A stretch of DNA of 32,000 nt from Dissulfurirhabdus thermomarina (GTDB taxonomy: Bacteria > Desulfobacterota > Dissulfuribacteria > Dissulfuribacterales > Dissulfurirhabdaceae). Made by a program: the position numbers and the translations under genes. The notes below the pieces were generated by a model. That model did no database searches and was not told the origin of the DNA. It was given only the letters and a program-made list of their open reading frames with translations. Below are positions 5,301 to 30,113 of this stretch, piece after piece. Position 1 is the stretch's first letter. The number at the start of each line of letters is the position of its first letter. The DNA lies in the NCBI RefSeq assembly GCF_012979235.1, contig NZ_JAATWC010000004.1, forward strand, positions 137,243 to 169,242. Reading direction: 5' to 3'.

Positions 5301-5330
5301 GAAAAGGCCTCCCCCGGTGCGGGGGAGGCC
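5301..5330 (-). terminator. Rho-independent terminator of the OMP gene
   Basis: Perfect 10-bp stem GGCCTCCCCC / GGGGGAGGCC with a 5-nt loop (5306-5330). Read on the minus strand it is followed by TTTTC. Lies 48 nt downstream of the stop at 5378. Confidence 0.6.
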
Positions 5331-5377: not shown

Positions 5378-6256
5378 TCAGAAGGCGTACTGGATGGAGA
5401 GGACGTAGGCCCTCCCGAAGGCCGCCCGCTTCTGGAGCGGCGCGGTCTTCCGGTAGGTCCGGTCGCCCGTGTCCGCGTAGGAGGCCACCAGCGTGAGATT
5501 CGGGTTCGGCATGTAGGCCGCGTGGGCCTCCCAGATGGAGTGGGTCGTGTACCGGGTGGCATCCCCCTCGATGACCCTGCCCACGTCGGCGTCCTGCTGG
5601 TACTCCCAGCCCACGATGAACCCGCCGGGGAGCACGGTCTCGACGTTGCCGAAGAAGACCGTGTCCCGGTCGTCGCCGAAGCCCAGCACGCCCCGGACGT
5701 AACCCTTGGTCCAGAGGAGGCCGGCGTTCAGGATCACCGGGACGGGAAGGGCGCCGAACATCTTGGTGGCCACGACGTAGCCGTCGACGTCGGTGACGTC
5801 GCGGGCCGGCGCCGCGCTGAACTCGGTATGCTTCCAGATGGCGCCGGCGGAGACGGCGGGCAGGAGACCGATCCCGAACCCGCCCTCCTGCACGAGGTTG
5901 ACCTTCAGGGAGAGGTTGTCCTTGTCCACGTTCTCGATGCCCTCGATATCCACGAACTCGTGGCTGTAGCCCAGCTCCAGGCGGTTGAAGAAGGCGATGT
6001 TCGCCCCCACGGACCACCAGTCGATGTCCGACTCGGTGAGCCCAGCGGTCCAGACCCCGACCTGGGGCCGGGAGACCGCCCGGCTCCCGAGCAGCCCGCC
6101 CGCCTCCCCCTTGACGGGGTTGGCGACGTAGGCGAAGGGATTCAGGGCGCACCCGCCCACGCCCTCGAAGTTGGTGAGCGGGGCGCCGGCCAGGGCCGCC
6201 CCCTCCAGGCACCAGCAGAGCCCCAGGAACAGGGACAGGGACACGATCTTTCTCAT
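5378..6256 (-). CDS. Putative outer-membrane beta-barrel protein (DUF3034-like)
   Basis: Start chosen at the internal ATG (6256), preceded by GGAGGAAG. Signal peptide is MRKIVSLSLFLGLCWCLEGAALA. Sequence alternates amphipathic beta-strand-like segments and ends in an aromatic residue (...SIQYAF), typical of OMPs. Confidence 0.6.
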   Translation of the reverse strand: MRKIVSLSLFLGLCWCLEGAALAGAPLTNFEGVGGCALNPFAYVANPVKGEAGGLLGSRAVSRPQVGVWTAGLTESDIDWWSVGANIAFFNRLELGYSHEFVDIEGIENVDKDNLSLKVNLVQEGGFGIGLLPAVSAGAIWKHTEFSAAPARDVTDVDGYVVATKMFGALPVPVILNAGLLWTKGYVRGVLGFGDDRDTVFFGNVETVLPGGFIVGWEYQQDADVGRVIEGDATRYTTHSIWEAHAAYMPNPNLTLVASYADTGDRTYRKTAPLQKRAAFGRAYVLSIQYAF

Positions 6257-6487: not shown

Positions 6488-7429
6488 TCAGCGCTCGTAG
6501 AAACCGAAACCGTTGACCGCCATGGGGACCGCGGTGTCGGAGGCGACCTCGAGCACCGATCCGTCATAGAGCCGCACCCGCCGGTAGCCCAAGAGGTCGC
6601 GCAGCACGAAGTAGCCGAGGGCGGCCCTGAGGCCGTGGTCGCTGTAGACCACGATCTCCGCGGAGCGATCCTCCGGGAGGCCGATCCCCCGGGCGATGGC
6701 CTGGAGTTCCTCCCTGGGCCGGAAGACGGATGGGCTGAAGGCCTGGCCGCCGAGGGTGAGATAGGCGGCCGGCATGGGGATGGCGCCCCTCAGGTGCCCG
6801 TAGCGGGCGACGTGGGCCTTCTTCTCGTGGCCGATGTAGGCGTCCATGTCCCGGAGGTCCACGAAGACCGCCGTGCCGGAACGCAGCCGCGCCTTGACCT
6901 CGTCCAGGCCGATGCGCCGGTCGGCCGCGACGGCGGGGACGAAGTCTCCCGGCTCCGGCACGGCGGGGCGCTTCGTGACCGGGAGTCCGGCCTGGCGCCA
7001 GGCCTCGAAACCGCCGTCCAGGAGGGCGGCCTTCCCGTGGCCCAGGGTCTCCAGTGTCCACAGGACCCGGGCGCTCCGCGCCGTATCCTCCGCGGTGACG
7101 CCCTGGTCGTAGATCACCACGAAGGCGTCGTTTCGCACCCCATAGGAGCGCAACCTCGCCGCCAGTTCCCCCACCGGCGGCATCATGAAGCCCCGGAACC
7201 GTTCATCCATGGTCTGCCAGGGGCCGAAGGCCTGCACCGCCCCCGGAATGTGGCCCTGCCCGTACCGGGAGAAGGTCCGCACGTCCAGGACGACCACCCC
7301 GCGGTCCTCCCGGTGCTTGGCGAGCCACTGAGCCGTGACCAGCGGATCGTGGGCCGGGGCGGGCCCGGCGCACGAAAGGAACACGGCGGCGCAGGCGGCC
7401 GCGATCAGGGCATGGATCGTCGTCTTCAT
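6488..7429 (-). CDS. Periplasmic tandem-rhodanese-domain protein (SseA/thiosulfate sulfurtransferase-like), with Ser at the catalytic Cys position
   Basis: 313 aa. Signal peptide MKTTIHALIAAACAAVFLSCAGPAPA. Two rhodanese repeats (VVLDVR...GHIPGA; FVDLRD...GHLRGA). The second-domain active-site loop reads VVYSDHGLRAA instead of CxxGxR. Start overlaps the upstream stop (ATGA). Confidence 0.8.
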   Translation of the reverse strand: MKTTIHALIAAACAAVFLSCAGPAPAHDPLVTAQWLAKHREDRGVVVLDVRTFSRYGQGHIPGAVQAFGPWQTMDERFRGFMMPPVGELAARLRSYGVRNDAFVVIYDQGVTAEDTARSARVLWTLETLGHGKAALLDGGFEAWRQAGLPVTKRPAVPEPGDFVPAVAADRRIGLDEVKARLRSGTAVFVDLRDMDAYIGHEKKAHVARYGHLRGAIPMPAAYLTLGGQAFSPSVFRPREELQAIARGIGLPEDRSAEIVVYSDHGLRAALGYFVLRDLLGYRRVRLYDGSVLEVASDTAVPMAVNGFGFYER

Positions 7430-8421
7430 CTCCGTCGCCTCCTGTCGTCATCCGGGCCGGCGGCCCGGCCGGAAGGCCGCCCCCACGAGAAGCGTTCCAG
7501 GGGAAGGTCCCCGCGCCGCCGGCAGTACTCCAGCATGGACCCGTCATAGACCCGCACGTTCTCGTAGCCGAGGACGTCGTGGAGCACGAGGTAGTCGATG
7601 CCCGCGAACTGGGCGGTGTTGCAGTAGACGATGATCCCGGCCCCCTTGTCCGCGGGGAGCCCCACGCCGCGGGCCAAGGCCTCGAGGACGGCCTCGTCCT
7701 TCAGGGTGGCTGGCGCCCGGTTGCGCCCGGCATTCGTGAGATAGGCCGCCGGCAGGCTCACCGACGAGGGGATGTGCCCGTAGCAGGCGACGTCGGCGCG
7801 CTTCGTGTGGCCGAAGTGCTGGTCCGGGTTCCGGGCGTCCACGAGGAAGGTGCGCGGATCGGCGATGGCGCGCCGCACGTCGTCGAGGCCGGCGATCGCG
7901 CGCGGGTCGCGCCGGGCGACGAAGTCCCCCCTGCGCGGCGCCGGCTCGTCCTTGACCACCTTCCGGCCCTCGAAGGTCCACTTCGTGAAGCCCCCGTTCA
8001 GCATGGAGACCCGTTCGAGCCCGTTGGCCTTGAGGATCCAGTAGACGGCCCCGGCCTTGGAGGCGTCGCTCACCGTGTTCCCGTGGGCATAGACCACCAC
8101 GTGGGAGTCGCGGTTCACCCCGGCCTCCTGGAGGAGGTCGGTGAGTTCGCCCTCGGGCACCATGAGGAGCTCGCCCTCGTCCCCCGGTGGCTCCATCTCC
8201 CCGTAGGGCACGCTCACCGCCCCCGGGATGTGGGCGAAGGCGTAGTTGGCCTCGGTCCGTACGTCCATCACCACGAGGCCCTTTCGGCCGAGGTGCCCGG
8301 CGAGCCAGGCCGTGTCCACGAGGGGCGGGGCCCCGCCCGCGGCCGCCCCGGGGGCCAGGCCCATGGCCAGGCACACCAGCCAGCCGATCACGCCGCTTCC
8401 GAATCCGGTCCTTTTCTTCAT
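7426..8421 (-). CDS. Periplasmic tandem-rhodanese-domain sulfurtransferase (catalytic Cys present)
   Basis: Start at ATG 8421, preceded by GAAGGAGG. Signal peptide MKKRTGFGSGVIGWLVCLAMGLAPGAAA. Two rhodanese repeats. The active-site loop is IIVYCNTAQFAG. Has an unusual Arg/Asp-rich 30-aa C-terminal tail. Confidence 0.8.
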   Translation of the reverse strand: MKKRTGFGSGVIGWLVCLAMGLAPGAAAGGAPPLVDTAWLAGHLGRKGLVVMDVRTEANYAFAHIPGAVSVPYGEMEPPGDEGELLMVPEGELTDLLQEAGVNRDSHVVVYAHGNTVSDASKAGAVYWILKANGLERVSMLNGGFTKWTFEGRKVVKDEPAPRRGDFVARRDPRAIAGLDDVRRAIADPRTFLVDARNPDQHFGHTKRADVACYGHIPSSVSLPAAYLTNAGRNRAPATLKDEAVLEALARGVGLPADKGAGIIVYCNTAQFAGIDYLVLHDVLGYENVRVYDGSMLEYCRRRGDLPLERFSWGRPSGRAAGPDDDRRRRR

Positions 8422-8477: not shown

Positions 8478-9836
8478 TCATCTTCTGCCCTCGATCCGCG
8501 CCGGGACCGGGTCCACGACGATCCGGCGGTTGGCCGCAGGGTCCCCGGGACGGAGATCGTCCCCGGTCAGGAAGAGTTCCCGCTTCCCGTGGCAGGCGTT
8601 GCACGACCGGTTCTGCGGGGTCCGCCTCTGGATGCTGTGCACCGCCGCGGAGTTCCATGTGGGGAGGGCGTCGTAGTTGGCGACGAGATCCTCCGGTCCG
8701 GGTTTGCCGGTGAGGGTGGCCTGGAACCACCGCAGCGAGGCGAGGGAATCCTTCCGCATGGGAGTGTGCCGGACGAGGTTGTACCGGTACGGGTTGGCCG
8801 GGCTCCGATCGATGTTCCTGCCGATCTTGAAGGTGAAGAGCGGCTCGGACGGGAAGATGACCTCGACCTTGCCCTCCTCCTTGACGTCCAGGGACACGTG
8901 GCAGTCCTGGCAGTTGAAGTACCGGTTCGCGTGGCAGACCTGGCAGGCCAGCTCGTTTTCCCCGTGGGCGTTGTGCATGGCCACCTTGGATCTCCCGGGC
9001 CGGGCGTCCGGGTGGCAGTCCTCGCACCGGGGGGTCTCGGTGGCGTAATAACGCTTGGCGTCCCCGGGCCGCGTGTGGTGGAGCTGGGAGCCCCGGTGGC
9101 AGTCGTCGCACTCCATCTGGCCCTTCTCGTAGTGGACGTCCGCGGTGGTCCCCAGGAAGCCCACGTATTCGCCGGCGAACCTGGAGCCGTGGCAGCCGAA
9201 GCAGGTCTTTTCCATGGGGGGGCGCCTCTGGAAGCGATGCCGGTCGATGAGGCCGCCCTTGGACACCTTGGGCCAGGCCACGTGGCAGCTGCCGCAGCTG
9301 GCGTGACAGTTGGCGCAATCGAGGCTCCAGGCGGCCGGGAGGAGGGTCTCCTGCATCTCGTGGGGCCTCGTGATGGTGCCCACGATGTCGAGGATGCCCT
9401 TCAGGGTGTAGTGCATGGAGTCCTTGAAGGTGGCGGCGATCTCCTCGTGGCACTCGGCGCACACCCCGCCGCCGCCCGCCTCCGACGGGTCCTTCACCAG
9501 GCCCTCGTGGGCCGCCTCCTTGTCGCTCGCATTGGTCCCCTTGTGGCAGTAGCGGCAGCCGAGCTCCCCGTGGGGGGTCTCGAGAAAGTCCCTGGCCACC
9601 CCGTAGGTGTCCCTGCCCCTCAACTGGGGGGCGGATACGCCTCAGCCGGCCACCCCGGCGGCCGCGGCCGCCGCCTTGGCCCCGAACTCGTCCATGCGCT
9701 CCAGGTCGGCGTGACAGGCGATGCAGGCCCCGGAGTCGGCATCGCCGGCCTGGACCGCCCGGACTGGGGCCGGAAGCCCGGCGCCAAAGAGCATCACCGC
9801 CAAGGTCACGAGTGATTTCATCATGTTGCGTTCCAT
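8478..9836 (-). CDS. Periplasmic undecaheme c-type cytochrome, interrupted by one in-frame TGA (9642-9644): candidate selenocysteine codon, or else a disrupted gene
   Basis: ATG at 9836 follows AGGAGGTGA. Signal peptide MERNMMKSLVTLAVMLFGAGLPAPVRA. There are 11 CxxCH motifs (CIACH before the TGA, 10 after). Both ORF-track pieces (9642..9905 and 8478..9623) are in the same frame. The downstream piece has no ATG/GTG start, RBS or signal peptide of its own. Confidence 0.7.
9602..9639 (-). other. SECIS-like extended stem-loop immediately 3' of the in-frame UGA
   Basis: mRNA after UGA reads GGCGUAUCCGCCCCCCAGUUGAGGGGCAGGGACACCUACGG. Lower stem is CGUA/UACG. Upper stem is UCC-GCCCC / GGGGC-(A bulge)-GGG. 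The 8-nt apical loop CCAGUUGA sits about 18-25 nt from the U of UGA. Confidence 0.35.
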
Positions 9837-9889: not shown

Positions 9890-10010
9890 CAACTGGGATT
9901 TTCATAAATGAACGCGGTTTTTATGTCAAGAATTTTTATTTATCTGGATTTACCGTTGTTTTATGAAAATATTTATACTTTTTTATCTTTTTATTGTTTT
10001 TTTATCGCTG
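9890..10010. promoter_or_regulatory. AT-rich (about 20-25% GC) island with phased T-tracts in the divergent intergenic region
   Basis: Seven T3-7AT tracts end at about 9924, 9939, 9964, 9976, 9986, 9994 and 10005. The last four have roughly helical spacing. The flanking genome is about 70% GC. Confidence 0.7.
9901..9929 (-). promoter_or_regulatory. Sigma70-type promoter of the cytochrome-rhodanese operon
   Basis: On the minus strand: TTGACA (9929-9924), a 17-nt spacer, then TATGAA (9906-9901). It sits at the edge of the AT-rich island and about 65 nt upstream of the ATG at 9836. Confidence 0.55.
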
Positions 10011-10263: not shown

Positions 10264-10656
10264 ATGGACGGCACTCACTTCATGAGGGCCCGGCGGCTCC
10301 TCGGAAAGACCCAGAAGCAGATGGCGGAGCTCCTCGGGATCTCCCTGAAGGCGGTCTGCAGCTACGAGCAGGGCTGGCGGCGGGTCCCTCCCCACGTGGA
10401 GCGGCAGGTCTACTTCCTCATCGCCTCCAGGCGGGGCCTCGCGGAGGGCATGACTCCCTGCTGGGAGGCCAAGGACTGCCCCGACGAACGGCGGCGCTGC
10501 TGCCCCGCCTGGGAGTTCAACGCGGGGCGGCTCTGCTGGTTCATCAGCGGAACGGTCTGCGAATGTAACGCCCACCGAAACTGGGACGAAAAGATGCGCA
10601 TCTGCAAGGAGTGCCACGTCCTGGGGCAGATCCTGGACATGTTCGCGGAGCCCTGA
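10264..10656 (+). CDS. XRE-family helix-turn-helix regulator with a C-terminal 9-cysteine (two Cys-Trp) domain
   Basis: 130 aa from ATG 10264 (GGAG 5 nt upstream). HTH segment is RARRLLGKTQKQMAELLGISLKAVCSYEQG. C-terminal segment is PCWEAKDCPDERRRCCPAWEFNAGRLCWFISGTVCECNAHRNWDEKMRICKECH. Confidence 0.75.
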   Translation: MDGTHFMRARRLLGKTQKQMAELLGISLKAVCSYEQGWRRVPPHVERQVYFLIASRRGLAEGMTPCWEAKDCPDERRRCCPAWEFNAGRLCWFISGTVCECNAHRNWDEKMRICKECHVLGQILDMFAEP

Positions 10657-17869: not shown

Positions 17870-17960
17870 CGAACCGTTTCCTTCGGGGAAAGCCGCCGAA
17901 ACACCGGTGTTTCCCGGTCACCGGGTCCTTCAAGGGTAACCTTCTTGCAGGGGGGATGCA

Positions 17961-19154
17961 ATGAGTACCATTTCAGACAAGGTCAAGGAAGTTTACGAGG
18001 GCTTCTTCAAGAAGACGTGGTCCCCCATGACCGGCGGCATCCTGCTGGCGGTCCTGGCCATCTACATGTTCGCCTGGCACCGCCCGTGGGGCATCGTGGG
18101 CGGCCTCCGGAACTGGGGCGACTGGGTCCTCTACTCCCTGGGCCTCCTCGACCTCGACGAGGCGCCGGCCCATCCTCTCTTCTACTCGTCGTCGGTCATG
18201 GACCTCGGGCTGCTCGCCGGGGCGTGGATCTCCGCCGTCATCGCCAAGGAGTTCGCCATCCGGATCCCGCCGATGTTGGAGATCTGGAAGGGCCTCGTGG
18301 CGGGTATCCTCATGGGCATCGGCTCGGCCCTGGCCTTCGGCTGTAACGTGGGCGGGTTCTACAGCGCCCTCCAGAACCTCGCCGCCAACGGCCTCACCAT
18401 GATGGTGGGCCTCATCATCGGGGTCATCATCGGGCTCAAGTACCTCTACTGGGAGATGGAGCACCTCACCCCCGGCCCGGCCGGCCCCACCTGGCTCGAC
18501 AAGAAGATCCCCGCCGTGGTCGGTTTCATCGCCTTGGCCGCCCTCATCTGGGCCGCCTACGCCTACGGCGGCTCCGACATGGAAGACGCCGACCTCATGC
18601 CCGGCTACCTCCTCATCGGCGCCGGCATCGGCTACGTCTTCCACCGCAGCCGCCTCTGCATGGTGAACGGCTTCCGCGAGCCCTTCATGACCGGCGAGGC
18701 CGCCATGGGCAAGGCCGTGGCCGTCAGCGTCATCATCGGCACCCTGGGCATCGCCATCATGAAGTACATGGACCTCCGGCCCGAGGGCATGTACGTGGTG
18801 CCCGCCTTCTGGTGGGGCTCCCTGGTGGGCGGCATCGTCTTCGGCGCCGCCATGGTGGTGGCCGGCGGCTGCGGCAGCGGCTCCCTCTGGCGGGTGGCCG
18901 AGGGCCAGGTGAAGCTCTGGGTGGTGGTGATCGCCTTCGCCCTCAGCAACTCCGCGGTCCGCTACTGGTTCGACCAAAACGACTGGCTCTACACCAACGA
19001 CGAGTACACCGTCGGCATGCTGGGCAAGGCCATCTACCTGCCGGACTACCTGGGCTACGGCGGCTCCATCCTGCTGGTCATCGCCGCCATGCTGGTCTGG
19101 TATATCGTGATCGACTGGAACGAGGACAGCAACAAGCTGGTCATCGAAATGTAG
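17961..19154 (+). CDS. yeeE: YeeE/YedE-family sulfur-compound (thiosulfate-type) transporter
   Basis: 397 aa polytopic membrane protein. Conserved Cys-containing half-helices (LAFGCNVGGF; VVAGGCGSGSLW) are characteristic of YeeE/YedE. Confidence 0.85.
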   Translation: MSTISDKVKEVYEGFFKKTWSPMTGGILLAVLAIYMFAWHRPWGIVGGLRNWGDWVLYSLGLLDLDEAPAHPLFYSSSVMDLGLLAGAWISAVIAKEFAIRIPPMLEIWKGLVAGILMGIGSALAFGCNVGGFYSALQNLAANGLTMMVGLIIGVIIGLKYLYWEMEHLTPGPAGPTWLDKKIPAVVGFIALAALIWAAYAYGGSDMEDADLMPGYLLIGAGIGYVFHRSRLCMVNGFREPFMTGEAAMGKAVAVSVIIGTLGIAIMKYMDLRPEGMYVVPAFWWGSLVGGIVFGAAMVVAGGCGSGSLWRVAEGQVKLWVVVIAFALSNSAVRYWFDQNDWLYTNDEYTVGMLGKAIYLPDYLGYGGSILLVIAAMLVWYIVIDWNEDSNKLVIEM

Positions 19155-19223
19155 GACGAGCGGAGGCAACCGGGCACATCCCCTGCCCAGAATTCGACAC
19201 ACAAGATCGAAAGAGGAGGAGAC

Positions 19224-19481
19224 ATGAGCGACTACAAGAAAGCACCCGACGGTCTCACGGTGGCGCGGACCCTCGACGCCAAGGGGCTCAGCTGCCCCAT
19301 GCCGCTCCTTCGGACCAAGAAGGAGATCGAGAAGATCAACTCCGGGGAGATCCTCGAGGTCCTCGGCACCGACCCGGGCTCCCGCAACGACATCCCCGGC
19401 TGGTGCGAGCGGGCCGGGCACGAGTACCTCGGGGAGAAGGAAGACAGCGGCTTCATCCGCTTCTACGTGAAGAAGAAGTAG
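19224..19481 (+). CDS. tusA: TusA/SirA-family sulfur carrier protein
   Basis: 85 aa. Has the canonical LDAKGLSCPMPLLRTKKEI (CPxP) motif and a strong RBS (AGAGGAGGAG). Confidence 0.9.
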   Translation: MSDYKKAPDGLTVARTLDAKGLSCPMPLLRTKKEIEKINSGEILEVLGTDPGSRNDIPGWCERAGHEYLGEKEDSGFIRFYVKKK

Positions 19482-19538
19482 TCACCATCCGCCGGCGGCC
19501 GAAACGCGGCCGGCACAACCAACGGGAGGACACATCGG

Positions 19539-19871
19539 ATGTCTGCCGATCCGAACAAGCTGGGAATCTTCGTCACCTCCCCGCAGCACATGGACCATCT
19601 CATCGGGATCGCCCATGCCGCCGTGCGGGCGGGGAAGAAGGTCATGGTCTTCCTGACCTTCAAGTCCGTCCACCTCACCAAGCACAAGGACTTCATCAAG
19701 CTGGCCAACCTCTGCGACGTCGGGGACCTCGCCATCTGCGCCGACAGCTACACCTGCGAGGGCTACGACCCGGAGGCCGACATCCCCAAGGGCCTGGTCC
19801 CCTCCCAGATGCGGACCCAGGCCTACCACGGGGCCGTTCTCGAGGAGTGCGGCAAGTACCTGGTGCTCTAG
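19539..19871 (+). CDS. DsrE/DsrF-like sulfur relay family protein
   Basis: 110 aa. N-terminus KLGIFVTSPQHMDH... has the fold pattern of DsrE-like proteins, with a conserved Cys region (AICADSYTCEGY). Position after tusA matches the YTD arrangement. Confidence 0.65.
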   Translation: MSADPNKLGIFVTSPQHMDHLIGIAHAAVRAGKKVMVFLTFKSVHLTKHKDFIKLANLCDVGDLAICADSYTCEGYDPEADIPKGLVPSQMRTQAYHGAVLEECGKYLVL

Positions 19872-20532: not shown

Positions 20533-20582
20533 GGACGTGACGGGCCGTTCCGGCCCGCCGCCACAGGGAAAGGAACCGTCCC

Positions 20583-21089
20583 GTGCACCCCGTCCTCCAG
20601 GCCATCCGCGAACGGCGAAGCGTCCGGCACTTCCGGCCCGATCCCGTGGACCCCGAGACGGTGCGCCAGATCCTCGAGGCCGGCGCCTGGGCCCCCTCCG
20701 GGCTGAACAACCAGCCGTGGCGCTTCGCGGTGGTGCGGGACGGGGCCACGCGGGAGGCCCTGGCGGCACTCACCCGCTACGCCCGGGTGATCCGGGAGGC
20801 GCCGGTCCTCTTGCCCGTCTTCGTGGACCGGTCGGTCATGTACCACGAGGTGAAGGACCACCAGGCCGTGGGCGCCTGCCTCCAGAACATGTTGCTGGCG
20901 GCCCATGCCCTGGGCCTGGGGGCGGTCTGGCTGGGCGAGATCCTGAAGAACGCCGACCGGGTCCGGGAGATCCTGGGCCTGGAGCCGAACCTCGAACTCA
21001 TGGCCGTGGTGGCCGTGGGACACCCGGCCCGGCGGGACCAGGCCTCCACCCGGCGGCCCCTGTCCGAGCTGGTGGTGAAGGAGATCTGA
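20583..21089 (+). CDS. Nitroreductase-family flavoprotein
   Basis: 168 aa. Contains RRSVRHFRPDPV, APSGLNNQPWRF and LGAVWLG motifs typical of the NADH/FMN nitroreductase family. GTG start. Confidence 0.8.
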   Translation: MHPVLQAIRERRSVRHFRPDPVDPETVRQILEAGAWAPSGLNNQPWRFAVVRDGATREALAALTRYARVIREAPVLLPVFVDRSVMYHEVKDHQAVGACLQNMLLAAHALGLGAVWLGEILKNADRVREILGLEPNLELMAVVAVGHPARRDQASTRRPLSELVVKEI

Positions 21090-21168: not shown

Positions 21169-21651
21169 ATGACGAAGATGCGTGAACCGGCTGCTTCCCC
21201 CCGCCTCCTCCCCTTTCTGGCCGCGGCGATCCTGGCCCTCTCCGGCTGCGCCCGGCTCACCGGCGGCGACGCGGCCGCTCCCGGCGACACCGGCGAGCCG
21301 GGCGCCCGGCCGCTCCCGGCGGCCCCCCAGGTGACCTACGAGTTCCCCGACCTCCCCTTCCCGGTGGAGCTCGAACGCGTCCCCGGCGACAGCATGATGA
21401 GCCGGACCCCGGACTTCCAGGGCGGCCTCCTGGTACTCCAGGGGCGGGTGACCCCGAAGTCCCTGGTGGAGTTCTTCGCCAAGACCCTTCCGGAGCACGG
21501 CTGGAAGCAGGTGGGCTCCCTCTACCACAGCCGGAGCCTCCTCGCCTTCACGAAACCCGGTGACGCCTTCTGCTTCATCCAGATCTCCGAGCCGCGGCTG
21601 AGCCTCCAGACCCGGGTGGAGATCTGGGTGAACGAGCCGCGGTCGCAATAG
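21169..21651 (+). CDS. Lipoprotein of unknown function
   Basis: 160 aa. Signal peptide with lipobox LALSGC. No catalytic motif recognised. Confidence 0.65.
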   Translation: MTKMREPAASPRLLPFLAAAILALSGCARLTGGDAAAPGDTGEPGARPLPAAPQVTYEFPDLPFPVELERVPGDSMMSRTPDFQGGLLVLQGRVTPKSLVEFFAKTLPEHGWKQVGSLYHSRSLLAFTKPGDAFCFIQISEPRLSLQTRVEIWVNEPRSQ

Positions 21652-21667
21652 GCCGCCCCCCGCGTCC

Positions 21668-22909
21668 ATGACCGGCCCCGGCGATACCGACCGCTGCCCC
21701 GCCTGGCGCCCCCTGGAGGGCCGGACCGTGGTCTTCGGCCTCACGGGGGGCATCGCCGCCTCGAAGGCCGTGGAATACGCCCGGGGGCTGCGCGGCCTCG
21801 GGGCCCGCGTCGTTCCCGTCCTGACCCCCGCCGCGGTGCACTTCGTGACCCCCCTGGCGGTCGCGGCCCTCACCGGCGAGCGGGCCCGGACCGACCTCCT
21901 CGATTCCCGAGACGCCGCCGAGGTACCCCACATCCGGCTCGCCCGGGAGGCGGACATCGTGGTGGTGGCGCCGGCCACGGCGGACTTCATGGCCAAGGCC
22001 GCCGCGGGCCTGGCGGACGATCTCCTCGGTGCCGTCCTCCTCTCCACCCGGGCCCCGGTGCTCTTCTGCCCCTCCATGAACCCGGCCATGTTCGACCACC
22101 CGGCCACCCGGGCCAACATCCGCCGCCTCGAGTCCTTCGGCCACCAGGTCCTCGAGCCCGGCGAGGGCGGCACCGCCTGCGGCGAAGAAGGCCGCGGCCG
22201 CCTGGCCGCCTGGCCCGCCTTCGAGGACGCGGTCCTCGCCTGCCTGGCCCCCAAGGACCTGGCCGGCCTCGCCGTGCTGGTCACCGCCGGCCCCACCCGC
22301 GAGCCCCTGGACCCGGTGCGTTACCTCTCCAACCGCTCCTCCGGTCGGATGGGCTTCGCCATGGCCCGATCGGCCCGGCGCCGGGGCGCCGACGTGACCC
22401 TGGTGGCCGGCCCCACCACGGAACCGCCGCCCCCCGGCATCCCTTGCCACCGGGTGGAGACCGCCGCCGAGATGGCGGAGCGGGTCTTCTCCCTCGCCCC
22501 GGCGGCGGACGTCATCGTCATGGCCGCGGCGGTGAGCGACTTCGCCCCTTCGGCGCCGTCGGACCGGAAGATCAAGAAGTCGGACACCGAGCACCTGGAG
22601 CTCCGGCTGGAGCGCACCACCGACATCCTCGCGGACCTCTCCCGCCGCCGGCGCCCCGGCCAGACCCTCGTGGGCTTCTGCGCCGAGACCCACGACCTCG
22701 AGGCGGAGGCCAGGGAAAAGCTCCGGCGCAAGGGCCTCGACCTCCTGGTGGGCAACGACGTCACGGACCCCGAAAGCGGCTTCGACGTCCCCACCAACCG
22801 GGTCGTCCTGGTGGACCCGGAGGAACGGGTGGAACATCTCCCCCTCATGCCGAAGACCGCCGTGGCCGAGGCGGTCTGGGACCGGATCGCCGCCCTGCGC
22901 CGGGTCTGA
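21668..22909 (+). CDS. coaBC: Bifunctional phosphopantothenoylcysteine decarboxylase / phosphopantothenate-cysteine ligase
   Basis: 413 aa. Has an N-terminal flavoprotein domain (VVFGLTGGIAASKA, PAMN..M) and a C-terminal CoaB domain (VTAGPTREPLDPVRYLSNRSSGRMG). Confidence 0.9.
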   Translation: MTGPGDTDRCPAWRPLEGRTVVFGLTGGIAASKAVEYARGLRGLGARVVPVLTPAAVHFVTPLAVAALTGERARTDLLDSRDAAEVPHIRLAREADIVVVAPATADFMAKAAAGLADDLLGAVLLSTRAPVLFCPSMNPAMFDHPATRANIRRLESFGHQVLEPGEGGTACGEEGRGRLAAWPAFEDAVLACLAPKDLAGLAVLVTAGPTREPLDPVRYLSNRSSGRMGFAMARSARRRGADVTLVAGPTTEPPPPGIPCHRVETAAEMAERVFSLAPAADVIVMAAAVSDFAPSAPSDRKIKKSDTEHLELRLERTTDILADLSRRRRPGQTLVGFCAETHDLEAEAREKLRRKGLDLLVGNDVTDPESGFDVPTNRVVLVDPEERVEHLPLMPKTAVAEAVWDRIAALRRV

Positions 22910-28711: not shown

Positions 28712-28808
28712 GAGCGAAGGCGCGCCACGGCACCGATGCGAAGGCAGGTGAGTGCCGTAGGCACTGCCATCCAGGCTATCACCTGGATCCGTAGACGTAA
28801 GAACAGAT

Positions 28809-29008
28809 GATGGCGTCGCGGGCATCGCCAAGCGGAACGCTTGGCGGCGTTGTTTCCCATCGCATCGTCACTGCGGCGTACTTCGAGTACGCCTCGTTCC
28901 TCGCGATGGCCGCGCCTTGTGCTCGGCGATTCCCGCTGAGCCATCCGTGCCGTGCATCCGGCGATCTCTGCTCAACCATCCACTCAGAGGCCTTTTTACG
29001 AGGCCATC
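28809..29008 (-). repeat. Mosaic intergenic repeat, locus 7 (composite unit, reverse orientation)
   Basis: Its reverse complement reads GATGGCCTCGTAAAAAGGCCTCTGAGTGGATGG...GGAATCGCCGAGCACAAGGCGCGGCCATCGCGAGGAACGAGGCGTACTCGAAGTACGCC...CCAAGCGTTCCGCTTGGCGATGCCCGCGACGCCATC. Flanked by 21-nt imperfect direct repeats. Confidence 0.85.
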
Positions 29009-29120
29009 TTGTAATGGCTGGCACCGCCCTCCAGGCTACCATGCTTTCAGACCCTTGGCAGCCGCTCCTCCCGGCGGTAGGCTTCACGTTGAGCGGGGTC
29101 CCGGGTCCCCGCCGCCGTCC

Positions 29121-30113
29121 ATGGAACGAACCGCCGCCGACAGCCATCCCGCCCCCCGCATCGCCGTTGTGGGCCCCGGGGCGGTGGGGTGTCTCCTCGC
29201 CGCCTCCCTCCACCGGGCCGGCTTCCAGGTGGCCCTCCTGGACCACCGGCCGGACCGGGCCGCCCGACTCGCCGCCGGCCTCCGGGTCGAGGATCCCGGG
29301 GGCGGCCGCTGGGAGGCCGCGCCGGCCGTCTCGGCCGACCCCGCCCGCCTCCGCCCGCGGGACTGGATCGTGATCGCGGTGAAGCAGCCGGACACCGAGC
29401 GGGCGGCGGAGGCCGCCCGCGCCCTCTCCGCCCCAGGCGCCCTGGTGATCTCGCTCCAGAACGGGCTGGGACACGAGGCGGTGCTCGCCCGGGCCTTCGC
29501 CCCGGAGCGGGTCGTCCTCGGCGTCACGGCCCAGGGGGCCACCCTCGTGGGGGAGGGACGGGTCCGGCACGCCGGCCGGGGCGAGACTCGGATCGGTCCC
29601 CTATCCCCGGAGGAGATGCCGGCGGCCGGCCTCGCCCCCCTGGCGGCGGCCTTCTCCCGGGCGGGCTGGCCCACCCGGGTGGAGGCCGACATCCGGCCCC
29701 TCGTCTGGCGGAAACTCCTCGTCAACGTGGGGATCAATGCCGTGACCGCCCTCACGGGCCTCCCCAACGGCGCCCTCCTCGACCACCCGGAGACCCGGCG
29801 CCTCCAGGAGCTGGCCGTGGAGGAGGCCCGGCGGGTGGCCGGGGCCCTTGGAGTGCCGCTCGGGCTCACGCCCGAAGCGGCGGCGGAGCTGGTCCAGGAC
29901 GTCTGCCGGCGGACGGCCGCGAACCTCTCTTCCATGCTCCAGGACCGGCTCCGGGGCCGGGACACGGAGGTGGAGGCCATCAACGGCGCCGTGGTCCGCC
30001 TCGGGTGCGAGGCGGGGGTCCCCACCCCGGTGAACGAGGTCCTCTGCCACCTCGTGACGATCCAGAGCCGTCTCGGGCACCCGCCCCCGGGCCGGCCCGC
30101 TCCGCCCGCGTGA
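29121..30113 (+). CDS. panE: 2-dehydropantoate 2-reductase (ketopantoate reductase)
   Basis: 330 aa from ATG 29121. Contains IAVVGPGAVGCLLA (Rossmann), LQNGLGH, KLLVNVGINAVTAL and SSMLQD motifs typical of ApbA/PanE. Confidence 0.8.
   Translation: MERTAADSHPAPRIAVVGPGAVGCLLAASLHRAGFQVALLDHRPDRAARLAAGLRVEDPGGGRWEAAPAVSADPARLRPRDWIVIAVKQPDTERAAEAARALSAPGALVISLQNGLGHEAVLARAFAPERVVLGVTAQGATLVGEGRVRHAGRGETRIGPLSPEEMPAAGLAPLAAAFSRAGWPTRVEADIRPLVWRKLLVNVGINAVTALTGLPNGALLDHPETRRLQELAVEEARRVAGALGVPLGLTPEAAAELVQDVCRRTAANLSSMLQDRLRGRDTEVEAINGAVVRLGCEAGVPTPVNEVLCHLVTIQSRLGHPPPGRPAPPA

Follow-up and report, generated by a model that had tools for sequence, protein, structure and literature searches.

Does the in-frame TGA that interrupts a multiheme cytochrome frame of Dissulfurirhabdus thermomarina end one gene ahead of another, betray a broken gene, or encode an amino acid? 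The window, that is, the whole 32,000-nucleotide stretch of contig NZ_JAATWC010000004.1 that was analyzed, carries on its minus strand one reading frame spanning two pieces, with a single in-frame TGA between a signal-peptide/heme-1 module and a module of ten CxxCH motifs. Comparative sequence evidence makes it very probable that the two pieces form a single gene and that its internal UGA is recoded as selenocysteine (Sec, U) under the direction of a selenocysteine insertion sequence (SECIS) element. The gene and its parts are as follows.

8478..9836, minus strand: predicted 11-heme periplasmic cytochrome c selenoprotein, a single gene of 452 residues (Met1 at 9836, Sec65, terminator TGA at 8480-8478)

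9645..9836, minus strand: 5' module, with signal peptide, heme-1 motif CIACH (9725-9711) and an Ala/Gly-rich linker ending in AG

9642..9644, minus strand: in-frame UGA, codon 65, in a G-U-G motif, predicted to be read as Sec

8481..9641, minus strand: 3' module, with ten CxxCH motifs (hemes 2-11), ten conserved non-motif His residues, and conserved Met208 and Met241

Around the stop, the frame reads ...AAAAAAGVAG-TGA(9644-9642)-GVSAPQLRGRDTYG... and runs on uninterrupted as GVSAPQLRGRD…, which confirms the frame and position of the two minus-strand pieces that a preliminary description of this DNA had placed on either side of the TGA. That description had given the upstream piece a ribosome-binding site, a signal peptide and one CIACH, and the downstream piece ten CxxCH motifs with no ATG or GTG start, ribosome-binding site or signal peptide. 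The 5' piece indeed has a GGAGG ribosome-binding site, an ATG at 9836 and a signal peptide with cleavage at about ...PAPVRA/VQA, as well as the CIACH. In the 3' piece, ribosome-binding site and signal peptide are absent, and the sole listed start is a TTG at 9623, six codons past the TGA. A global change of the genetic code had been discounted, rightly: TGA also terminates window genes 20541-21089, 21632-22909 and 28761-30113, and the cytochrome gene itself. In an alignment of homologs, the 11 hemes share only ten conserved non-motif His residues, which leaves at least one heme without bis-His ligation; the alignment has no conserved Cys outside the heme motifs of the family.

Taken by itself, a lone in-frame stop resembles a fresh nonsense mutation or a base-call error, and no Sec machinery is seen in the window. 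A recent pseudogene would account for both observations, and so would an ordinary 11-heme cytochrome gene with a sequencing or assembly error; the preliminary description had listed a pseudogene and a sequencing error as alternatives. We therefore turn to the homologs. A protein search with the joined sequence returned 226 of them, most about 370-385 residues long and beginning just past the TGA position, which suggests that this position halts gene callers everywhere. Scanning one genome per species gave at least 600 pattern matches, at least 475 of which encode a relative; the best 80 were fetched, and each was extended in frame upstream to its first stop codon. In 79 of these 80 loci, that stop is a TGA at the homologous codon. 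The loci come from species-representative genomes of five phyla (Desulfobacterota, Nitrospirota, Bacillota, Spirochaetota and Chloroflexota), protein identity is 36-77%, and both flanks of the TGA are conserved. Of the 79, 76 have a signal or lipoprotein peptide with at least one CxxCH 5' of the TGA; among the remaining three, two are truncated by a contig end or an upstream stop. The sole non-TGA locus of the 80 (L064) is an uninterrupted open reading frame (ORF) with an unrelated linker.

The G-U-G motif is present throughout the TGA loci: in an ungapped alignment of 80 sequences, the TGA is invariant and a Gly follows in all. Its surroundings vary by lineage. Desulfobacterota and Nitrospirota, including Candidatus Sulfobium, have …AA(V/I)AG-U-GVSAPQVRGRD…, Bacillota have …GGG-U-GVAGPQL…, and about 45 Anaerolineae and other Chloroflexota have …ESKGVG-U-GGEVAPLEPWEK…. 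An exhaustive search without a profile, covering 1.84 billion cluster representatives, gave 94 clusters at E ≤ 1e-30 (237 at E ≤ 1e-10), and a protein 100% identical to that of the window is encoded on an independent contig (P0001). A TGA kept at the same codon in independent assemblies of five phyla, together with this second contig and with the constraint at synonymous sites and the covarying hairpin described below, excludes a pseudogene or an error for all practical purposes.

Two homologs have Cys at the Sec position, encoded by TGT in one (P0105, locus L082) and by TGC in the other (P0096, locus L084). Both are full-length single ORFs with the residue in a GG-C-G context. Conservation across the stop codon and the existence of Sec/Cys pairs are the usual criterion for selenoprotein genes. 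The preliminary description had raised the matter of whether orthologs have TGA or Cys at the aligned position; both occur.

These observations also bear on a reading in which there are two genes, one for a small secreted monoheme cytochrome that ends at the TGA and one for a separate decaheme protein that starts from the TTG at 9623 or a nearby codon. That TTG exists, and public annotation makes just this division. In NCBI calls for L085 (8806-8997), L086 (8686-8943) and L087 (8674-8991), the 5' module is a separate hypothetical ORF of 63-105 residues, followed after a gap of 1-19 codons by the main cytochrome ORF (about 340-385 residues). However, heme attachment requires export, for which the 3' piece has no signal peptide, and it has no ribosome-binding site either. 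Furthermore, the residues between the TGA and any start (GVSAPQ or GGEVAPLEPW) are among the best conserved of the family, and the homologs with Cys, Trp or other residues are uninterrupted single ORFs of the same architecture. Because the flanks are conserved across the stop and Sec/Cys pairs exist, we set aside two genes along with pseudogene and sequencing error, although two genes deserves slightly more credit than these and is still very improbable. The family is systematically misannotated: it is either split into two ORFs or misnamed a sulfurtransferase, many members bearing the JGI label 'thiosulfate/3-mercaptopyruvate sulfurtransferase'.

The preliminary description had also pointed to a hairpin immediately 3' of the TGA, and this hairpin exists as described. 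Its positions are counted here from the U of the UGA.

9605..9642, minus strand: SECIS-like stem-loop, with upper stem 9632-9626/9621-9615, loop AGUU at 9625-9622, and lower stem out to nt 3-40

The core of the window hairpin (nt 13-30, 9632-9615) is GCCCCCC AGUU GAGGGGC. When 63 nt from each TGA were folded across the loci, most lineages had an upper stem at about nt 13-30 with an apical loop of 3-5 nt, containing G and U, at nt 20-24; the hairpin of Tissierellia and Peptococcaceae is shifted downstream by up to about 8 nt. The apical loops found are AGGU, GUU, AGUUA and AGUU, and the hairpins of the main lineages are as follows.

Desulfobacterota and Nitrospirota: GCCCCUC, loop AGGU, GAGGGGC

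Chloroflexota: GGCUCC, loop GUU, GGAGCC

Bacillota: GGCCCGC, loop AGUUA, GCGGGC

Sphaerochaetaceae: GCGCCGGA, loop GUU, UUCGGCGC

Because the window is 71% GC, a fold of the whole region is uninformative, and positional controls within each gene were used instead. Within its own coding sequence, the 30-nt segment spanning nt 10-39 ranks among the top 5% for stability in 70 of the 79 loci (median 0.6%); that of the D. thermomarina gene is in the top 3.1% of the segments of its gene (-12.6 versus -6.4 ± 3.0 kcal/mol). Covariation is also observed. In the 80-sequence alignment, 40 sequences have C-G at pair 16-28, 39 have G-C and none leaves it unpaired; these counts partly mirror a few deep clades and do not represent independent events. 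The covariation score of the helix is 0.404, against 0.131 ± 0.014 in shuffles, none of 500 of which scored as high, and it falls to 0.206 or less when the 3' arm is slid by 1-3 columns. This answers the call of the preliminary description for a covariation test among orthologs.

Synonymous sites tell the same story. In 40 Chloroflexota loci, codons +4 to +8 are GTG GCT CCG TTG GAG in 40/40, whereas the flanking Gly and Pro residues, equally conserved, use three or four codons. In the sequences of group 1, Arg+8 is AGG in 22/22 and Gln+6 is CAG in every sequence with Gln there (21/22), as against five codons for Arg+10. This synonymous freeze coincides exactly with the stem (codons +4 to +9). 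A SECIS element is recognized by a 3' stem-loop with a G/U apical loop about 16-37 nt past the UGA and by selection at the RNA level, features that are seen here. With a start about 10 nt past the UGA, a G-C-rich upper stem of 4-8 bp and a G/U loop of 3-5 nt, the geometry also fits the bacterial SECIS consensus. From this comparison, we propose that a SECIS-type stem-loop starting about 10 nt past the UGA, with its G/U apical loop about 20 nt downstream, would direct Sec decoding.

Several observations count against Sec recoding. In some homologs, Sec is replaced by Trp, Arg, Phe or a different residue (the codon is TGG in L081), and it is, to judge from these sequences, dispensable in some paralogs. 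The window hairpin carries one C.A mismatch, though its loop and position are kept. The thermodynamic argument for this hairpin is weak when it stands alone: the 66-nt fold after the TGA is no stabler than dinucleotide shuffles (z = 0.07). An Rfam scan of the whole window returned no family above threshold, at the hairpin or elsewhere. Finally, the 32-kb window contains no tRNA gene detectable by ARAGORN and no selA, selB, selC or selD, and ARAGORN found no tRNA-Sec in any of the 87 fetched loci. The sel genes are normally located elsewhere in the genome, so their lack in the window and loci is not surprising.

The Trp forms, the Rfam result and the lack of sel genes in these 32 kb could also be accommodated by readthrough of another kind, in which near-cognate insertion of Trp or Cys, or a local suppression signal, would read the UGA, the hairpin being a stimulator and not a SelB-binding SECIS. 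We consider this improbable, if less so than two genes. The agreement of the hairpin with the SECIS consensus argues for Sec, as do the Sec/Cys homolog pairs, the classic selenoprotein signature. The Trp forms are a divergent subfamily in which the flanking Gly residues are lost as well. In addition, the selenoprotein MccSep is encoded in lineages related to the carriers of the present gene (PMC13510729). Sec recoding, as first proposed in the preliminary description, is thus supported by the TGA itself, the Cys homologs, the conserved and covarying hairpin and the frozen synonymous sites; TGA conservation, Cys homologs and conserved hairpin together are, at the sequence level, the standard bioinformatic signature of a bacterial selenoprotein gene.

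A paralogous subfamily (P0047, P0048, P0051, P0054 and P0081) has 12 hemes owing to an extra CxxCH insert, and it carries Trp, Arg or Phe where Sec would be. These proteins look like Sec-independent derivatives. We considered that Trp forms might be artefacts of gene calling under genetic code 4 and rejected this, L081 being truly TGG. This related Trp-form locus lies behind NrfC/NrfD-like genes and another multiheme cytochrome gene, of 377 residues.

What might an 11-heme Sec cytochrome do? Its neighbors provide the main indication. The window features in question are the following.

7426..8421, minus strand: RhdA, periplasmic two-domain rhodanese with active-site loop YCNTAQFAG (Pfam Rhodanese, 1.9e-30)

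6488..7429, minus strand: RhdB, rhodanese-like protein of two domains whose catalytic Cys is replaced by Ser (YSDHGLRAA; Pfam Rhodanese, 2.5e-30)

5378..6256, minus strand: DUF3034 protein with signal peptide and C-terminal ...SIQYAF, last gene of the operon (PF11231, 6.9e-18)

5306..5330, minus strand: intrinsic-terminator-like hairpin of 11 bp, 10 of them G-C pairs, with a T-rich tail (TTTTCGATGA), about 50 nt past the DUF3034 stop

9906..10010, no strand assigned: AT-rich island of about 100 nt, almost pure A/T, between the cytochrome operon and the divergent regulator

10264..10656, plus strand: divergent HTH_3 regulator with a Cys-rich two-CW domain (PF01381; NF045718 two_CW_domain, 47 bits versus a cutoff of 35)

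The start codon of RhdB overlaps with the stop of RhdA (ATGA). All 21 group-1 loci keep the gene order cytochrome, RhdA, RhdB, the contig of L019 ending within RhdA. The catalytic Cys of RhdA (YCN[TS]xQxAG) is kept in 19/19 aligned orthologs, and RhdB has Ser at the active-site position (YS[ND]xGxxAA) in 20/20 aligned orthologs from L001-L021, many of the mature proteins lacking any Cys. RhdA and RhdB thus form a conserved pair of an active and an inactive rhodanese. The DUF3034 gene is adjacent to the operon in L002, L003, L014 and L085, and the two-CW regulator adjoins it in the first three of these. The operon cytochrome-RhdA-RhdB-DUF3034 is conserved in Desulfobacterota and Nitrospirota.

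Cytochrome-rhodanese pairing or fusion recurs in Bacillota and Chloroflexota. A locus from a Dethiobacter metagenome-assembled genome (L035) has the Sec-type gene followed by a two-domain rhodanese, the next gene in Thermanaerothrix solaris (L047) encodes a 581-residue protein with four rhodanese domains, and fused cytochrome-rhodanese proteins exist (P0044). The Cys-form locus L082 (8361-12978) also has a cytochrome-rhodanese pair. There, an NrfA-like and a further multiheme cytochrome come before the pair, and after it come a Psr/Phs-like molybdopterin oxidoreductase, a 4Fe-4S subunit and a chaperone.

The DUF3034 protein is probably an outer-membrane beta-barrel, to judge from its sequence ends only, and it could be an entry channel for a sulfur substrate, by analogy with ExtI of the Geobacter ext cluster; a literature search for DUF3034 function found nothing relevant. 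The AT-rich island is presumed to be a promoter or operator region, and a sigma-70 consensus scan of 9906-10010 called nothing there. At 17940-19871 on the plus strand, 8 kb from the selenoprotein operon, lies a sulfur or selenium uptake module: a YedE/YeeE-type membrane protein, then a TusA/YedF-like sulfurtransferase, then an unassigned 129-residue ORF. The best NCBIfam match of the membrane protein is 'selenium metabolism membrane protein YedE/FdhT', below cutoff.

On balance, this gene context inclines us, by a narrow margin, to view the cytochrome as a rhodanese-coupled periplasmic sulfur-compound oxidoreductase. Sec, in the G-U-G motif, would sit at the end of the flexible Ala/Gly-rich linker that separates heme 1 from heme 2. 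The selenolate may attack an S-S bond, with the heme chain as electron source or sink and the rhodaneses passing on sulfane sulfur. Candidate substrates are polysulfide, thiosulfate, tetrathionate, selenite and rhodanese persulfide, and the reaction could run in either direction. In an AlphaFold model of the Cys homolog P0105, the mean predicted local distance difference test score (pLDDT) is 84, and the Cys loop falls below 50. A disordered loop is consistent with a flexible tether. One point tells against this proposal: at such a pLDDT, the model leaves the loop unplaced relative to the hemes.

A more modest role may also be considered: Sec would be real, with a structural or redox-buffering part to play in a protein that is only a wire for electron transfer, for example to the cell exterior, and the rhodanese linkage would be incidental. 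Pfam detects only generic c7/c3 multiheme modules in the cytochrome, and sequence and profile searches of solved structures gave generic multiheme matches only (28pb_A at 8e-8, OcwA (6i5b) and NrfA). A study of Dethiobacter places its homolog among proteins linked to extracellular electron transfer; in the same work, however, this likely homolog is up-regulated on thiosulfate and not on ferrihydrite (PMC10376724). The adjacency or fusion with rhodaneses, moreover, is kept across three phyla and many species, and one heme has no conserved distal His. Sec, for its part, is costly and typically catalytic. We find a pure wire unlikely.

As to the rhodanese-coupled oxidoreductase that we prefer, a bolder version is as unlikely as the pure wire: beyond acting as a free nucleophile, Sec65 might, on its flexible tether, ligate at the distal axial site the one heme without a conserved His, giving a natural His/Sec heme, or it might swing into the active-site cradle of RhdB and provide in trans the catalytic chalcogen absent from this protein. 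If true, this would be a new coupling of selenium, heme and rhodanese chemistry, and the cytochrome would be the periplasmic enzyme so far missing for thiosulfate or sulfur reduction, or for disproportionation, in Desulfobulbaceae, Candidatus Sulfobium, Dethiobacter and Anaerolineae.

The 11-heme cytochromes belong to a known kind of protein, in which they form a new and widespread family that has so far gone unannotated; they are not a categorically new class. Selenoprotein and sulfur-cycle inventories miss them because the annotations examined split them into 'hypothetical' ORFs or misname them. The pairing with a catalytic and a Cys-less rhodanese makes the family a candidate for periplasmic turnover of thiosulfate, polysulfide or sulfur. 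Hosts include sulfur disproportionators, relatives of cable bacteria, Dethiobacter and Anaerolineae. Anoxynatronum buryatiense (NZ_FXUF01) and Thermanaerothrix solaris (NZ_JAUHMF01) are cultured carriers, and Dethiobacter alkaliphilus probably carries the gene too. It is also present in the genome CP045798.1.

How does this family compare with known Sec cytochromes? The preliminary description had recognized no described class of this kind, a view that is outdated: GSU2937+2936 was predicted to be a Sec multiheme cytochrome in 2007 (PMC1914089), and this same protein was proven in 2026 to be one, under the name MccSep (PMC13510729). A 2026 review of selenoproteomes lists ExtKL (NF040886), the GSU2204 family (NF041027) and octahemes of the OTR family (TIGR04315) as selenoproteins, and includes none with 11 hemes (PMC13188914). 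A literature search for an 11-heme Sec cytochrome found nothing relevant. A Foldseek search returned no match. NF040886, which represents MccSep/ExtKL, has no match at E <= 0.01 to the joined protein or to either piece, and NF041027 has no match to the cytochrome. Two other models were tried and rejected: TIGR04315 scores 34 bits against a cutoff of 375, in a local match to about 95 residues of the 3' module (E = 1.6e-8), and the GSU2203-family decaheme model NF041028 scores 22-24 bits against a cutoff of 325.

The OTR family, which has Sec-containing members annotated in GenBank (PMC13188914), resembles the window cytochrome as a multiheme cytochrome of sulfur-compound respiration with that weak local match. 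It differs in having 8 hemes, not 11, and the profile search of solved structures gave no OTR match. In TsdA, SoxAX and DsrJ, a chalcogen side chain near or on the heme iron does sulfur-sulfur chemistry, a frame that has been used for MccSep (PMC13510729). These proteins showed no sequence similarity to the window cytochrome, in which a Sec65-heme contact is a candidate only.

Dethiobacter alkaliphilus has a multiheme cytochrome, DealDRAFT_1917 (OMD50_RS07060), encoded beside rhodanese-domain genes. Formerly misnamed a thiosulfate sulfurtransferase and up-regulated in thiosulfate-grown cells, it has been treated as an octaheme homolog of SirA/Otr that branches deeply, close to Otr and SirA, with no mention of selenium (PMC10376724). 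Its old name is the wrong name that JGI gives to many members of the window family, and from this naming and the gene context, not from its sequence, we infer that it belongs to this family.

The closest parallel is MccSep of Geobacter sulfurreducens, the first Sec multiheme cytochrome to be proven biochemically. This tetrameric polysulfide reductase with five hemes, in which Sec325 lies beside a His/Cys-ligated heme, is the sulfur reductase long sought in Geobacter (PMC13510729). Both proteins are periplasmic multiheme c-type cytochromes with one Sec encoded by UGA and a SECIS-like hairpin right after it, and both genes have historically been annotated as two split ORFs. MccSep belongs to the extHIJKL cluster with the rhodanese ExtH and the outer-membrane protein ExtI, and the window operon likewise has rhodanese genes and that of a probable outer-membrane protein. 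The two also share broad lineages (Desulfobacterota and Nitrospirota). By analogy with MccSep, Sec-nucleophile chemistry on S-S bonds is expected here. However, a sequence relationship is not detectable, and the number of hemes is 11 instead of 5. Sec65 lies in a G-U-G motif of an N-terminal linker, unlike U325, which lies in a D-G-U-P loop of a C-terminal Ig-like domain. The Cys that ligates heme 2 of MccSep, whose His/Cys heme is the active site, has no counterpart among conserved non-motif residues of the window family. The 11-heme family thus probably represents a second Sec cytochrome solution beside MccSep, unrelated in sequence, larger in heme number and spread over at least five phyla.

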